A stretch of 39,414 bases of DNA from Thermodesulfovibrionales bacterium (GTDB taxonomy: Bacteria; Nitrospirota; Thermodesulfovibrionia; Thermodesulfovibrionales; UBA9159), in the NCBI GenBank assembly GCA_919901585.1, contig CAKKPH010000052.1, positions 1 to 39,414 on the forward strand, read 5' to 3'. Positions 35,945 through 39,414 of this stretch are shown here, piece after piece. The notes below the pieces were generated by a model. It did not search any database and was not told the DNA's origin. It worked only from the letters and a program-made list of their open reading frames with translations. Positions within the stretch are counted from its first letter, which is position 1; each line of letters starts with the position of its first letter. Position numbers and translations under genes: made by a program.

Positions 35945-36026
35945 GAAGTATTATATCATAAATCCTGCATGGTCTTAACAGGTTAGGGGGATGGATTCAG
36001 GCAGAAAAATTGTATCCGGAGGTTGC

Positions 36027-36914
36027 ATGGGTTCGATAAATAATGTGGTGTTAAAGACAGAGATGCCTGATGTCGGTATCCCGAAACGGGGCAAGGTGAG
36101 GGATATCTATGACCTCGGCGACAGCATGCTTCTTATAGCCACTGACAGGATCTCTGCATTTGATGTCGTGCTTCCTAACGGCATACCAGGGAAGGGCAGG
36201 GTCCTGACCCAGATATCAATATACTGGTTCAGGCAGATGGAGGATATAGTTAAGAACCACCTGATAGCAACAGACGTGAACGACTTCCCTGATATCTTGA
36301 TGAAATACAGGGAGATGCTCGAAGGTAGGAGCATGCTTGTAAAAAAGGCGAGGCCTATGCCTGTAGAATGTATTGTGAGGGGTTACCTCACAGGAAGCGG
36401 CTGGAAGGAATATAAGGAAAGGAACACTGTCTGCGGCATCAGGCTCCGGAAGGGTCTTGTCGAATCAGAGAGGCTTGAAGAGCCGATCTTCGCACCTTCA
36501 ACCAAGGCAGAGGAAGGGCATGATATCGATATCTCGTTTGATGAGATGGCCGGGATAATCGGCATGGAGACAGCCGGGCGGCTTAGGGAGCTGAGCCTTA
36601 GGATATACAAGACTGCAAGGGAGATGGCTCTGAATAAAGGGATAATCGTCGCTGATACCAAGTTCGAGTTCGGCCTTTATAACGGAGAGCCTATACTCAT
36701 TGACGAGGTTCTTACCCCGGATTCTTCGAGGTTCTGGTCAGTAAAAGATTATTCTCCTGGCAGGGCGCAGGACAGCTTCGACAAGCAGATCGTGCGCGAT
36801 TATCTCCTTACCCTCGTCTGGGACAAAACCCCTCCGGGCCCTGTCCTCCCTGACGAGATAGTCAGAAAGACAGCAGAGAGATACAGGGAGATAATGGAGA
36901 TATTGACAAGCTGA
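36027..36914 (+). CDS. purC: Phosphoribosylaminoimidazole-succinocarboxamide (SAICAR) synthase
   Basis: Contains RGKVRDIYD...[12 protein letters not shown] and the rest of the long-form PurC pattern. The ORF opens at 35991, but the ATG at 36027 has a GGAGG SD 4 nt upstream and leaves room for the divergent def/purC promoters. Confidence 0.9.
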
Positions 36915-36970: not shown

Positions 36971-37861
36971 TTATTTATAACTTATTTTCCATTTATCCTC
37001 GGAAACCTTCCATTTCCCATCTTCAATAATCATCTTGATCGAGCCTGTCGCCTTTTCCCTGGGAGTCTCCAGTCCTTCCACGGTAAAGGACGCTTTGTCG
37101 CCGGCGACAACAGGTTTGACTATCTTTATTTTTTCAGGGCGCATTTTCAAGATATCAATAACCGCTTCTCGCCTCCTTTTATCGTAAGAGTCGAACTCTT
37201 CCTGATTTTTGTATGTGAGAAAATCACGGATATTCTTGACATCACCTGCTATGCATGCCTCATGGTATTCAGCGTATGCCTTGGCCGGCGGGCTTGTATC
37301 TCCGCTTACAGAAATGTCTTGTATCGCTGATTTACCCGAGGGCTTATCTATTTTTTTTTTACCCAAGCTCACCTTAAACGATGCATCGAAAGAATAGGAC
37401 ACGTCTGAAAACCTTACCTGTTTCGGAGTTGAAATCTTTCCCTCAATCATAGTTGCATCAAACCGCGTAATAACGAGGGCCACTTTCCCATCCTCAACCC
37501 TTCCCATTCCCACTCCCATCTCCTCTCCCGGGTAATACACCTTGCCATAAGTATTTGTAAGTTTTTTGTCTTTACGGGAGATGCTAAAAGCAATGGCATG
37601 CACCTTCTGCTCCTTCACGAGCTTTTCGGGAAGAAAGGGAATAGCTTCGGTTGGAAGGGCCTTGTCGGAGAGGACCACAATCGGCTCGGCAGGATCAGTC
37701 TCGTCCACATATGCATGAACCAGATTAACCTTGGCTCCGTTCACATTCAAAGATCCGGAGACATCTTTTCCAGGGGATCCGGCAATCGCCGGCTGTACTC
37801 CGCCTGACAGCATAAGAACACAGAAGCAAGCATAGATAAAAAAAAGTGAATAGTCACGCAT
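36971..37861 (-). CDS. Secreted protein of unknown function, possibly with an NTF2/DUF4878-like C-terminal domain
   Basis: The ATG at 37861 has an AAGGAGG SD 7 nt upstream (the ORF track extends to a TTG at 37912). Signal peptide: MRDYSLFFIYACFCVLMLSGGVQPAIA|GS. The C-terminus (...GSIKMIIEDGKWKVSEDKWK) resembles small NTF2-like domains. Contains an A10 tract. Confidence 0.7.
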   Translation of the reverse strand: MRDYSLFFIYACFCVLMLSGGVQPAIAGSPGKDVSGSLNVNGAKVNLVHAYVDETDPAEPIVVLSDKALPTEAIPFLPEKLVKEQKVHAIAFSISRKDKKLTNTYGKVYYPGEEMGVGMGRVEDGKVALVITRFDATMIEGKISTPKQVRFSDVSYSFDASFKVSLGKKKIDKPSGKSAIQDISVSGDTSPPAKAYAEYHEACIAGDVKNIRDFLTYKNQEEFDSYDKRRREAVIDILKMRPEKIKIVKPVVAGDKASFTVEGLETPREKATGSIKMIIEDGKWKVSEDKWKISYK

Positions 37862-38005
37862 AGTAACCTCCTTGGTTTCTTTAGGAGACCCTGCTAATAG
37901 TATAGGATTCAATCAGCAGCTTTTTTCACAAAATTGCTTATAGAATTTTAAAAAATCGGGATAGCTCTATTTTTTCATTCATTCCTCATTTACCCGCAAT
38001 GAACG

Positions 38006-38122
38006 GCTTAACGTTCCGCGCACTGGCGATGTATGACGGCTGGCGCGAGACTTGCTTTTGCAAGGCTCATGACAGACGGCAAATGTTTCCATTTTGTTAA
38101 AACGCCTGTGCGCTTGTTATGT
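38006..38122 (-). repeat. attC-like imperfect palindrome (117 bp) downstream of the DUF4258/YgiT cassette
   Basis: On the minus strand: ACATAAC (R''-like) - AA - GCGCACAGGCG ... CGCCAGTGCGC - GGAAC - GTTAAGC (R', which fits GTTRRRY). The 11-nt arms pair at 10/11. The central part holds a CTTGC-TTTT-GCAAG hairpin. Confidence 0.5.
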
Positions 38123-38147
38123 GGAGTGGGGTGCGTGTATTCTTTCT

Positions 38148-38411
38148 CTAAGTATATTCAACAACAGGAACTGAGCGTTTAACCGCAAAGCTTTTCTTGT
38201 GCAACTTAATGCGCTCAATTTCATGCAGCGTTTCTGCTTCAAGATAACTTTCTCCACAGTGTGGACATGAAACGACAGGGACATTTTCTACAACCAAAAT
38301 ATCCTTGCCCTTCCCATAAGTCCGTGCAACCCTGCGGATGCGAGCACCCTGTTTTCCGCAATTATCACAAATCATTTCTCTCCCTGTTCCCATAGTCATA
38401 TTATGACACAT
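38148..38411 (-). CDS. YgiT-type zinc-finger protein (MqsA-family antitoxin N-domain only)
   Basis: CDNCG...(x27)...CPHCGESYL zinc ribbon, with no HTH domain following. The likely true start is the ATG at 38375 (MICDNCG, GGGAG upstream). It overlaps or abuts the DUF4258 gene. Confidence 0.8.
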   Translation of the reverse strand: MCHNMTMGTGREMICDNCGKQGARIRRVARTYGKGKDILVVENVPVVSCPHCGESYLEAETLHEIERIKLHKKSFAVKRSVPVVEYT

Positions 38412-38682
38412 ACATCGTAATGATAACCAACTTGCCTGTTGGACTCAATTTCGCAACAACTTCAACTTTGCCACCACCAAGAGATTGCCCGTTTAAACGG
38501 TATTTCCATTCGGCAGTGACTTTGTCTTTTTGTCTTTCAAAAATCTTTCCAGTCAGAATACAGTGTTCAACATCATAAATCGACAGGGAATCTTCATCCA
38601 TTTCCTCATTCCCATGAATCGACATGATGTATTCACGATTGCGGATTTTTTTCCGCATTATCTTTACAATTTGGTCAAACAT
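38401..38682 (-). CDS. DUF4258-family protein (putative toxin partner of the YgiT zinc-finger protein)
   Basis: 93 aa. The pattern ...IHGNEEMDEDSLSIYDVEHCILTGKI.E...........Y...G.....G..VEVV......LVIIT.Y matches my recollection of DUF4258. Confidence 0.75.
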   Translation of the reverse strand: MFDQIVKIMRKKIRNREYIMSIHGNEEMDEDSLSIYDVEHCILTGKIFERQKDKVTAEWKYRLNGQSLGGGKVEVVAKLSPTGKLVIITMYVS

Positions 38683-38719
38683 TTATAATCTACTCATTTT
38701 TTGTCTTTCTCACGCACCC

Positions 38720-38784
38720 CATTATCGTTCAAGCACAAACGAAACCGTCAGGTTTCTGAGATTCCGTTTGTGCCGTTGTTAGCA
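38720..38784 (-). repeat. attC-like imperfect palindrome (65 bp) downstream of the hicAB cassette
   Basis: On the minus strand: TGCTAAC (R''-like) - AACG - GCACAAACG ... CGTTTGTGC - TTGAAC - GATAATG (a degenerate R'). The arms pair at 9/9, and an inner GAAACC/GGTTTC hairpin is present. Confidence 0.55.
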
Positions 38785-38804
38785 AAAGTGTCAGTATCGA
38801 AATT

Positions 38805-39017
38805 TTATCTGATGGCAACATACTCTGCAAAGGAAGTCGACTGAGGGATAGACAGCCCATCTTCCTTCAGCCCTTGCAAGTGCAATTCAATGGCTTCATG
38901 CATATTTTGCTCTGCTTCTTCACGTGTAGTTCCTGTAGCTACACAACCGGGCAAGTCAGGTGAATATGCTGAATAGTTTCCATCTGCCTTTTCGATTACA
39001 ACAAGAAAACGATGCAT
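38805..39017 (-). CDS. hicB: HicB-family antitoxin (short form)
   Basis: 70 aa with the UPF0150/HicB fold signature (FLVVIEKADGNYSAYSPDLPGCVATGTTREEAEQNMHEAIELHL). The ATG overlaps the hicA stop (TAATG), and a GAAGGAGG SD is present. Confidence 0.88.
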   Translation of the reverse strand: MHRFLVVIEKADGNYSAYSPDLPGCVATGTTREEAEQNMHEAIELHLQGLKEDGLSIPQSTSFAEYVAIR

Positions 39018-39211
39018 TACTTTACCTCCTTCAGTTTCGCCTGTTTCAAAATGCTGTTCAGAGTTCCCGGCGCTAAGTTGTCATTAGGATGGCCGGCGAT
39101 TGTAACTCTGCCAGTCTTTGTTGCATGTTTGTACTGCCGGTGACTGCCACGAGTGTCTACTCGATACCAGCCATCAGCCTCTATCAATTTTATGATATCA
39201 CGAATCTTCAT
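39017..39211 (-). CDS. hicA: HicA-family mRNA interferase toxin
   Basis: 64 aa: MKIRDIIKLIEADGWYRVDTRGSHRQYKH....GRVTIAGHPNDNLAPGTLNSILKQA is the canonical HicA pattern. Confidence 0.92.
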   Translation of the reverse strand: MKIRDIIKLIEADGWYRVDTRGSHRQYKHATKTGRVTIAGHPNDNLAPGTLNSILKQAKLKEVK

Positions 39212-39236
39212 TATTGTCTTTCTATTCGGGCAGTTC

Positions 39237-39303
39237 CGCTAACGTTCAAGGCCAAAAGAAGTGCGATAGCATTTGATACTTAGTCTTTTGGGCTGTGTTA
39301 GGC
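39237..39303 (-). repeat. attC-like imperfect palindrome (67 bp) downstream of the truncated right-hand cassette ORF
   Basis: On the minus strand: GCCTAAC (a perfect RYYYAAC that overlaps the ORF stop codon) - ACAGC - CCAAAAGA ... TCTTTTGG - CCTTGAAC - GTTAGCG (R'-like). The arms pair at 8/8, with an offset G next to them. Confidence 0.6.
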
Positions 39304-39414
39304 GACGTGTGCCACCTTCTTAGTTTTTTTCAAATGCCCGAACTTCTGAGACAAAAGATCAAGCTGCTCTTTATCCGAGAGCTTAGATAACTTCTGTTCA
39401 GCTTCTTTTTGTAA
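39298..39414 (-). CDS. 3' end of an unidentified ORF running off the window (cassette-borne, function unknown)
   Basis: An open frame runs from the window edge to TAA at 39300-39298: ...LQKEAEQKLSKLSDKEQLDLLSQKFGHLKKTKKVAHVA*. No motif was recognised. Confidence 0.4.
   Translation of the reverse strand, partial: LQKEAEQKLSKLSDKEQLDLLSQKFGHLKKTKKVAHVA

Follow-up and report, generated by a model that had tools for sequence, protein, structure and literature searches.

The contig CAKKPH010000052.1 (GenBank assembly GCA_919901585.1) of a Thermodesulfovibrionales bacterium was analysed over its whole length of 39,414 bp, hereafter called the window. This study deals with its right end, where small minus-strand genes are followed by three imperfect palindromes (P1, P2 and P3) that resemble the attC sites of integrons. 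Read on the minus strand, the order is a truncated open reading frame (ORF), P3, hicA, hicB, P2, a DUF4258 gene, a YgiT/MqsA-like gene, P1, a lipoprotein-like ORF and, convergently, purC. Since the window is the entire contig, the cassette array is cut by the contig end. Exact-protein look-ups with HicA and PurC, aimed at extending the contig rightwards, gave no match, and the one made with the DUF4258 protein returned only a 1.4-kb contig (L001). No tyrosine recombinase was found in the window by tblastn, as the initial annotation of this DNA had stated. The features of the region are listed below in the order of the minus strand.

39298-39414, minus strand: truncated cassette ORF, C-terminal 38 codons, cut by the contig end; stop codon TAA at 39300-39298, inside the GCCTAAC box of P3
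39237-39303, minus strand: P3, attC-like site of the P3/type-B family, 67 bp; GCCTAAC-AC-[AGCCCAAAAGA]-loop-[TCTTTTGGCCT]-TGAAC-GTTAGCG
39017-39211, minus strand: hicA toxin gene, 64 aa; Pfam HicA_toxin, E 1e-22
38805-39017, minus strand: hicB antitoxin gene, 70 aa; Pfam HicB_lk_antitox, E 1e-12
38720-38784, minus strand: P2, variant or degenerate site, 65 bp; TGCTAAC-AACG-[GCACAAACG]-loop-[CGTTTGTGC]-TTGAAC-GATAATG, GTT absent at R'
38711-38721, no strand: right arm of the 11-bp inverted repeat bounding DUF4258/YgiT; CACGCACCCCA
38401-38682, minus strand: DUF4258 gene, 93 aa, putative toxin; Pfam DUF4258, E 3e-11
38148-38411, minus strand: YgiT/MqsA-like zinc-ribbon gene, 87 aa, putative antitoxin; weak Pfam matches, all below the cut-off (MqsA_antitoxin, YokU, DUF7479)
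38127-38137, no strand: left arm of the 11-bp inverted repeat bounding DUF4258/YgiT; TGGGGTGCGTG
38006-38122, minus strand: P1, last site of the array, P1 type, 117 bp; ACATAAC-AA-[GCGCACAGGCG]-long loop-[CGCCAGTGCGC]-GGAAC-GTTAAGC
37993-38005, minus strand: conserved extension behind the R' box of P1; minus-strand CGTTCATTGCGGG, the motif that opens cassettes of this family
36971-37912, minus strand: secreted or lipoprotein-like ORF, up to 313 aa, with a signal-peptide-like N-terminus and a likely ATG start at 37861; lies between the last site and purC
35991-36914, plus strand: purC (tblastn), chromosomal outer boundary of the array

The genes between the palindromes had been described as toxin-antitoxin modules, which the Pfam matches to HicA, HicB and DUF4258 bear out, the zinc-ribbon antitoxin being matched weakly. 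The truncated ORF shares 79% DNA identity with a 52-aa ORF located behind a PIN-like 159-aa ORF in a related locus (L118), a match that makes it the probable second gene of one more two-gene, toxin-antitoxin-like cassette. Gaps of 20-38 nt separate the ORFs from their sites, and one stop codon lies within an R'' box, that of P3, as had been observed for the rightmost site. The foreign codon usage claimed for these genes was also found: GC content at third codon positions (GC3) is 0.41 in the cassette genes vs 0.56 +/- 0.04 in 14 housekeeping genes of the window, and total GC is 43% vs 46-51%.

Structure and folding of the palindromes

The initial annotation had placed each palindrome just downstream of co-oriented minus-strand genes. 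All three were recovered with a repeat finder, and nothing comparable was present in the other 38 kb of the window. The arms lie at 38018-38033 and 38098-38113 in P1, at 38733-38744 and 38762-38773 in P2 (12 nt, 92% complementary) and at 39249-39259 and 39284-39294 in P3 (11 nt, 91% complementary). The outer boxes, which had been likened at all three sites to the integron consensus R'' (RYYYAAC) and R' (GTTRRRY), read ACATAAC and GTTAAGC in P1, TGCTAAC and GATAATG in P2, and GCCTAAC and GTTAGCG in P3. TAAC is present in all three and GTT in P1 and P3, and the likeness fails at the R' end of P2. Paired inner arms around unrelated centres were observed as described, with stem pairing of 10/11 (P1), 9/9 (P2) and 10/11 (P3), spacers of 2/5, 4/6 and 2/5 nt, respectively (R'' side/R' side), and no bulge in any site. 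Complementarity of the cassette ends beyond the boxes was likewise verified, since TGGGGTGCGTG and CACGCACCCCA, which flank DUF4258/YgiT, are exact complements and the flanks of hicAB match at 10 of 13 positions.

A generic scan of both strands for AAC...GTT boxes with a stem of at least 9 bp yielded P1, P3 and one weaker site in the 39.4 kb, against a background of about 0.4 sites per 10 kb in block-shuffled related loci. This box-plus-stem scanner is specific and insensitive, many family members having a degenerate GTT. The Rfam database, which holds no attC family, gave no match in the window. When folded as single-stranded DNA (ssDNA), P1 reached -26.8 kcal/mol on the + strand (z -4.2) and -18.1 on the minus strand (z -1.0), and P3 reached -11.3 kcal/mol (z -3.1) and -6.4 (z about -1), respectively, whereas both strands of P2 folded at about -13 kcal/mol with z about -4.5.

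Site families and cassette boundaries in related contigs

P1, P2 and P3 belong to conserved families of 65-120-nt sites, built of a nnnTAAC box, an 11-bp covarying stem around a variable loop, an (A/T)GAAC spacer and a GTTAnnn box. Such sites delimit co-oriented cassettes; these cassettes reassort between contigs, and their starts and ends are complementary. At E<=1e-5, 374 homologues of the DUF4258 protein were found, predominantly in Nitrospirota and predominantly on short contigs. Two sets of loci were compared: 80 metagenome loci around DUF4258 genes (the array set, 0.56 Mb) and 1.1 Mb of Nitrospirota loci picked via purC (the control set). Fetched relatives carry L-numbers, the first 81 being L001 and 80 purC loci. 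Both the P3/P2-type and the P1-type sites recurred in dozens of Nitrospirota metagenome contigs. Searches with blastn and nhmmer for relatives of P3 gave 31 sites. The window and a purC control locus (L053) each hold one of them, and the other 29 are spread over 20 DUF4258 loci, always on the strand of the DUF4258 gene. A covariance model (R2) was built from 11 'type-B' members of the P3 family. In the window it returned P3 (42.1 bits, E 9e-8, minus strand) and, at 11.4 bits and E 1.7, P2, with no further significant site across the 39 kb. R2 matched 51 times in the array set, always on the + strand and co-oriented, vs three times in the control set.

The consensus of the P3 family, in gene sense, is nnnTAAC-AC-[NNNNNAAAAGA]-loop-[TCTTTTNNNNN]-(A/T)(A/T)GAAC-GTTAnnn. 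In the end boxes TAAC is nearly invariant and GTTA is usual, some copies having GAT, ATT or AAT; the spacers of the type-B relatives are 2/6. Five variable stem positions covary (GGCGG/CCGCC, GGTGC/GCACC, GTTGC/GCAAC, AGCAC/GTGCT, AGGCC/GGCCT), and double-sided changes occur in 9 of the 11 stem pairs. In the alignment as fitted to the R2 model, on which the pairing statistics were taken, 86.7% of the pair cells (90.6% of the stem cells) are standard pairs, vs 71.3% in column shuffles and 38-48% with slid partners. Of 46 family sites, 38 fold more stably on the antisense strand (p 8e-7), and genuine class 1 attCs behave likewise (12/16), bottom-strand preference being assessed here as a folding bias only. 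Two P2-like sites ending in GAAC GATAGGC were found in L110. The longer P1 family has homologues downstream of DUF4258/YgiT in L093, L087 and L106 and near purC in L069 and L057; its alignment defines a conserved family, with intact copies too few for a covariation test. Two other kinds of palindrome were noticed in these loci. Behind a GmrSD cassette that neighbours the head recombinase described below (L180:10950-11000) stands a near-perfect short palindrome, CGCTAAC AGCGGCTATACGCC-loop-GGCGCATAGCCGCT GTTAGCG, with no spacer asymmetry. A separate family, GGATTCCyGC-N4-GCrGGAATGAC (L125:1840-2240, L131:1560-1620), flanks a hicB-only insertion that tells apart the otherwise near-identical L125 and L131.

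Array cassettes in the relatives comprise toxin-antitoxin, defence and unknown genes, and P3-type sites also trail cassettes other than toxin-antitoxin ones (an HHH protein, GmrSD and unknown ORFs). In L102, four P3-type sites lie within 3.4 kb, between hicAB, a DUF4258-like/YgiT-like pair, other ORFs and DUF4258/YgiT. A YgiT-like gene is paired with DUF4258 in every related locus, and the neighbours of this pair differ: hicAB in the window, an attI-like region in L093, MazE-Fic in L087, proB in L084, PIN plus the 52-aa ORF in L118 and a SIR2-like gene in L088. The hicB-P2-DUF4258 junction of the window recurs identically in L001, which comes from a second sample. In this contig (L001:1-1429), the 5' part of thiC is fused to the last third of hicA, followed by hicB-P2-DUF4258-YgiT, and identity to the window jumps from ~90% to 100% inside hicB; the thiC-hicA junction could be either a chimeric assembly or a real rearrangement.

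The boundaries of the DUF4258/YgiT module were located by comparing these copies. The 11-bp inverted repeat travels with the module (L084-86, L093, L102 and others), and GTTATGT precedes GATAATGGGG in at least seven other loci, among them L093, L099, L102, L107, L113 and L138. In these six, whatever the type of site upstream, the module starts with GTTATGT and ends with ...CCCCACTyC ACATAAC, its exact complement. Homology between copies sets in at GTTATGT or at GATAATG, again independently of the upstream site; in the window, GTTATGT is missing at P2 and GATAATG stands in its place. A start that complements the module's own ACATAAC end is the signature expected of a former circle opened at G|TT. 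The circle cut at G|TT that the initial annotation had proposed is supported in this respect by the relatives; homology, as discussed below, breaks at both boxes and not at G|TT alone. In L175 every cassette starts with TTATCTGCTCATTGCGGGC and ends with GCCCGCAACGGCAGATAAC, and G|TTAnnn is succeeded by GyTCATTGCGGGC where cassettes begin in L175, L132 and L099. The R box of the family is thus extended, to as much as ~19 bp (GCCCGCAAcgGCAGATAAC / GTTATCTGCtcaTTGCGGGC), which explains both the complementarity beyond the heptamers and the motif CGTTCATTGCGGG behind P1 (37993-38005).

The left end of the array was compared with other purC regions. PurC of the window is at most 75% identical to the PurC proteins of Nitrospirota/Thermodesulfovibrionales metagenome-assembled genomes (MAGs) by tblastn, and those of L069, L071, L047 and L057 are 66-71% identical to it. 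Array tails were found at the purC 3' end or near it in at least four other Nitrospirota genomes, and two of the three R2 matches in the control set belong here. One (L071:10868-10966, minus strand) abuts the purC stop, and the other (L047:3818-3918, minus strand) is ~590 nt past the real purC end and adjoins a fragment resembling the 3' end of purC. P1-type sites abut the purC stop codon in L069 (5150-5262, minus strand) and lie 1.4 kb from purC in L057 (12284-12362, minus strand). Homologues of the cassette genes were absent around purC in 80 Nitrospirota genomes. The tail beside purC is therefore kept in distant relatives with differing content, as in sedentary chromosomal integrons. Between the last site and purC, the window has the lipoprotein-like ORF and L069 and L071 have nothing. 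This ORF (36971-37912) has no Pfam match and no homologue in L001 or the 80 purC loci, its GC3 is 0.48 vs 0.56 +/- 0.04 in the housekeeping genes, and it may be a site-less terminal cassette of the array.

Array heads and the associated recombinase

No IntI-type gene was detected by tblastn with IntI1 in ~1.7 Mb of related loci. What this search picked was a tyrosine recombinase gene located just upstream of the first cassette in L093 and co-oriented with it, together with remnants elsewhere. Six independent head loci were obtained (L093, L175-178, L179, L180, L181 and L182); in addition to Nitrospirota, their sources are MAGs labelled as Acidobacteriota or Thermodesulfobacteriota and a genome from a hot-spring metagenome. 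Their features, and those of one head region without the gene, are:

Head recombinase, co-oriented with the downstream accessory/cassette genes: L093:114-809; L175:7718-8894; L179:8001-9185; L180:8001-9068; L181:8001-9116; L182:7386-8483
attI-like region of ~115 nt, directly behind the recombinase stop: L093:806-933; L175:8890-9019; L179:9182-9310; L180:9065-9191; L181:9124-9251; L182:8480-8607
attI-like region without a recombinase gene: L087:10697-10813

What defines an integron is an integrase with an extra domain that reads the flipped-out bases of the folded attC, and Treponema IntIs carry this IntI additional domain. In work attributed to MacDonald et al. in 2006, the domain reportedly binds extrahelical bases in IntI4. 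A canonical intI, which the initial annotation had considered to the right as one of two possibilities, was found beside none of the related arrays; all six heads carry instead an IntI/XerA-like recombinase devoid of the additional domain. The protein has ~390 aa and belongs to a family with thousands of members at E<=1e-30, whose sequences agree to ~80% between MAGs carrying the labels Nitrospirota, Acidobacteriota, Thermodesulfobacteriota, Zixiibacteriota and others. Its N-terminal extension of ~110 aa has no Pfam match. It passes the model NF040815 (XerA-type; 'site-specific tyrosine recombinase/integron integrase') and fails the integron-integrase model TIGR02249, which it matches in two stretches with 222-230 bits vs a cut-off of 265. 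Identity to IntI1 is 32%, with gaps (~40 residues) exactly over the ALERKYP...WxWxWVF region of the additional domain. The closest sequence in the PDB is IntI4 (2A3V, 157.6 bits), followed by XerA (143) and XerD (95).

The attI-like region contains two small hairpins, TGACA/TGTCA and TTCTGG/CCAGA, and a long one of ~65 nt made of two ATATCCGAA/TTCGGATAT palindromes, which covary between phyla. The end of the region, (A/G)AAC(A/G)AG|TTRnnn, falls exactly at the start of the first cassette. Behind it follow co-oriented toxin-antitoxin pairs, GmrSD, an HHH protein and unknown ORFs, and sites trail the cassettes behind the head recombinase in L093, L175, L180 and probably L182. Remnants of the recombinase, internally deleted or reduced to C-terminal pieces, were found upstream of arrays in six more loci (L101:148-568; L106:504-788; L128:684-1053; L119:707-835; L144:1794-1982; L153:2-310 and 1085-1200), and the 1.1-Mb control set had none. 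The stop codon of the remnant abuts the DUF4258 start codon in L144 and L153, and L153 holds two such units in tandem.

The opposite orientation, with the + strand as top strand, would let the longer arm mimic a canonical R''. It was rejected because P1-type sites travel downstream of the gene pair, because the head junction reads ...AAACAAG|TTATGT in gene sense, and because sites and genes are co-oriented and the antisense strand folds better, as in real attCs. The head of the array consequently lies to the right, past the contig end, and the cassettes follow from it leftwards. This agrees with the initial annotation, in which the minus strand had been taken as top strand.

Nature of the array and its relation to known systems

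For the comparison with genuine attC sites, the aadA1 attC sequence was verified against 1,962 plasmids, and 16 attCs were then extracted from class 1 integrons. All 14 class 1 sites that were aligned show TAAC followed by a 5-nt spacer, one bulged L'' base (column 16) and a 5-6-nt spacer before GTT. A proxy covariance model (R1) made from these 14 sites is narrow, two held-out genuine attCs scoring just 17-22 bits. In the window it detected only P3 (39303-39238, minus strand, with the predicted ends), at 9.0 bits and E about 3. A class 1 integron on a Pseudomonas aeruginosa plasmid (L171:2885-3330) holds a reversed YoeB/Phd cassette with a blaOXA-1-type attC between aadB and catB3. The sites of the window and their family share with attC sites the pairing, the covariation and the variable centre; as in cassettes, they lie 3' of co-oriented ORFs and, as seen through the relatives, each unit starts with the complement of its own R''. 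An adjacent intI with the additional domain, which belongs to a complete integron, was seen neither in the window nor in the heads of the relatives. The three sites lie within 1.3 kb on a contig with no integrase; IntegronFinder defines a CALIN (cluster of attC sites lacking an integron integrase) as at least two attC less than 4 kb apart.

On this evidence, it is likely that the segment 37993-39414 is the promoter-distal end of an integron-type chromosomal cassette array beside purC in a member of the Thermodesulfovibrionia (Nitrospirota). Within the contig the array is integrase-less (CALIN-like), and it is probably a variant integron class. The sites would act as folded ssDNA hairpins of the antisense strand, and a tyrosine recombinase would carry out strand exchange at G|TT, with a site and the hairpin-shaped attI-like region as partners, inserting and excising circular cassettes at the attI-like site of the array head, to the right of the contig end. 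To judge from the relatives, this enzyme may be the co-oriented IntI/XerA-like recombinase without the additional domain, an architecture that fits sites devoid of the canonical extrahelical-base geometry. The toxin-antitoxin cassettes may stabilise the array. P2, having no GTT, probably no longer recombines, so that hicAB and DUF4258/YgiT would be fused into one unit; the identical junction in L001 supports the view that the two are frozen together.

Several observations weigh against this interpretation. The spacers of the window sites are 2 nt (4 in P2) on the R'' side vs 5-6 nt on the R' side, whereas in canonical sites the extra bases are on the R'' arm. L'' has no bulged base, a departure from attC geometry, P2 has no GTT, and in 98 kb of related arrays R1 detected nothing at E<=1. 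The hairpin core behind ACATAAC varies among copies of one module (P1 type, P3 type and others), so that homology breaks at both boxes, which a single G|TT crossover does not predict; recombination of either strand, or replacement of the core within the host, could account for it. Among near-identical loci there is no site-bounded excision or insertion polymorphism, none of the three indels being bounded by sites, and mobility is therefore deduced from the reassortment of cassettes between diverged contigs. Finally, the recombinase is absent from the window, where the contig ends before the head of this genome's array, and adjacency in the relatives is what suggests that recombinase and sites belong together.

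An ordinary integron or CALIN would have divergent but canonical attCs and a standard IntI off the contig, the recombinase of the relatives being a decayed or unrelated neighbour. The TAAC/GTTA boxes, the palindromes, the bottom-strand folding bias and the toxin-antitoxin cargo are all integron-like, R1 picks P3 on the expected strand and with exactly the expected ends (albeit with E about 3), and several genuine class 1 attCs, such as those of aacA4 and blaOXA-1, end in ...CAAAC GTTRRRY, which resembles the GAAC GTT of the window sites. In addition, studies based on IntegronFinder have reported attC sites and CALINs from Nitrospirota, namely from Nitrospira inopinata (PMC9668308, PMC9024848), whose attC match is listed in the supplement of a paper on archaeal integrons, without sequences for comparison. 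We nevertheless regard this explanation as unlikely, since tblastn with IntI1 gave no IntI-type gene in ~1.7 Mb of related loci, R1 gave nothing at E<=1 in 98 kb of related arrays, spacers and L'' depart from the canonical geometry, and all six independent heads share the domain-less recombinase and a conserved junction ending in G|TT. The recombinase is moreover intact and ~80% identical across phyla and is thus not a decaying gene. That these arrays form a distinct branch of integrons, with hairpin sites lacking extrahelical geometry, a co-oriented, domain-less IntI/XerA-related recombinase with an N-terminal extension, and a hairpin attI, is a tentative proposal in which our confidence is slightly less than even.

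Two further explanations dispense with folded recombination sites. The boxes might be moved by a Xer-like recombinase acting on duplex cores, with no hairpin, as in the pdif modules of Acinetobacter; the head recombinase indeed passes the XerA-type model and fails that of integron integrases, inverted repeats flank the module at either end, and both boxes mark breaks in homology. This is very improbable, because the sites are 65-120 bp long (65-117 bp in the window) and co-oriented instead of 28-bp dif-like sequences in alternating orientation, and their strands fold with a consistent asymmetry. Their long-range arms, 20-80 nt apart, covary freely, which argues for base pairing and not for a fixed protein-binding sequence. 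Equally hard to sustain is the idea that the palindromes serve no recombination, being terminators, mRNA-stabilising hairpins, toxin-antitoxin operators or repeats of the repetitive extragenic palindromic (REP) or miniature inverted-repeat transposable element (MITE) kind, in arrays of other origin. They are intergenic and stand right behind stop codons, the inner hairpin of P2 was flagged as terminator-like, and no direct excision product was observed among near-identical loci. A promoter and terminator scan of the region, however, gave chance-level matches only; terminator-like matches numbered 3 vs 2.1 +/- 1.4 expected by chance, and P1 and P3, which have no T tail, went undetected. The same family follows HHH, GmrSD and unknown-ORF cassettes, the end boxes complement the far cassette end and not merely each other, and the arrays begin at a conserved junction behind a recombinase gene. 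Among the observations that the initial annotation had named as speaking against it are palindromes dispersed in REP/MITE fashion and conserved synteny of the cassettes in distant relatives; on a third, an attC covariance model without matches, the narrow proxy R1 gave its single weak match at P3. Neither of the first two was seen, R2 finding no other site of this type in the window and only three in the 1.1 Mb of controls, and the cassette neighbours being different from locus to locus.

Among known systems, the closest are sedentary chromosomal integrons and CALINs (PMC4889954). Common traits are arrays of small co-oriented cassettes that mostly have no promoter and that each terminate in an imperfect palindrome with boxes like RYYYAAC/GTTRRRY; sites that are homogeneous within an array; toxin-antitoxin cassettes; foreign composition; better folding of the bottom strand; a fixed chromosomal address (here purC) with varying content; and contigs that break inside arrays. 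The present arrays differ in their spacers (2 vs 5-6 nt, not 5 vs 6), in the lack of an L'' bulge, in the R box of ~19 bp, in the failure of a class 1-trained model and in the absence of an IntI with the additional domain near the arrays. The 'inverted'-integrase integrons of the Treponema group (PMC4889954) likewise have the recombinase upstream and co-oriented, with the insertion site directly after its stop; unlike theirs, the recombinase described here is without the IntI additional domain and has the N-terminal extension. The recombinase itself resembles the 'integron-like' simple tyrosine recombinases/XerA (PMC8138268; NF040815), with IntI4 (2A3V) and then XerA as best PDB matches; according to Smyshlyaev et al. 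(2021), the insertion typical of IntI 'is not fully conserved' within the integron-like subgroup. The literature retrieved by full-text search describes neither a function nor an association with cassette arrays for insertion-less recombinases of this kind, nor the combination of non-canonical site geometry with a co-oriented, domain-less IntI-like recombinase.

Acinetobacter pdif modules, which often carry toxin-antitoxin genes, are also discrete modules with inverted recombination boxes and Xer-family recombinases. Their 28-bp duplex sites, with 11-bp arms around a 6-bp spacer, alternate in orientation and are plasmid-borne, in contrast to the 65-120-nt covarying hairpins described here, which are co-oriented, chromosomal and arrayed with a dedicated head. 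Resistance-gene modules flanked by Xer sites are described in PMC7399989, and PMC13108822 reports that toxin-antitoxin cassettes stabilise the array in Vibrio.

Since attC sites and CALINs have already been reported from Nitrospirota, the window alone adds to a known phenomenon, and if the array were a divergent CALIN it would be a routine addition in this phylum. If the arrays do form a distinct integron branch, tools that require intI_Cterm would call them 'CALIN' or miss them. In the survey of Cury et al. (2016, PMC4889954), 95% of the integrase-less attC clusters were without a recognisable intI pseudogene nearby, and their abundance was deemed surprising; such a branch could explain part of this excess. 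Site geometry and integrase architecture would then co-vary, which would make the rules of strand choice directly testable. Integron-type gene capture would be broader, both phylogenetically and mechanistically, than current detectors show, and there would be a mechanism of mobility for the toxin-antitoxin and defence cassettes of which uncultured anaerobes hold a widespread reservoir.

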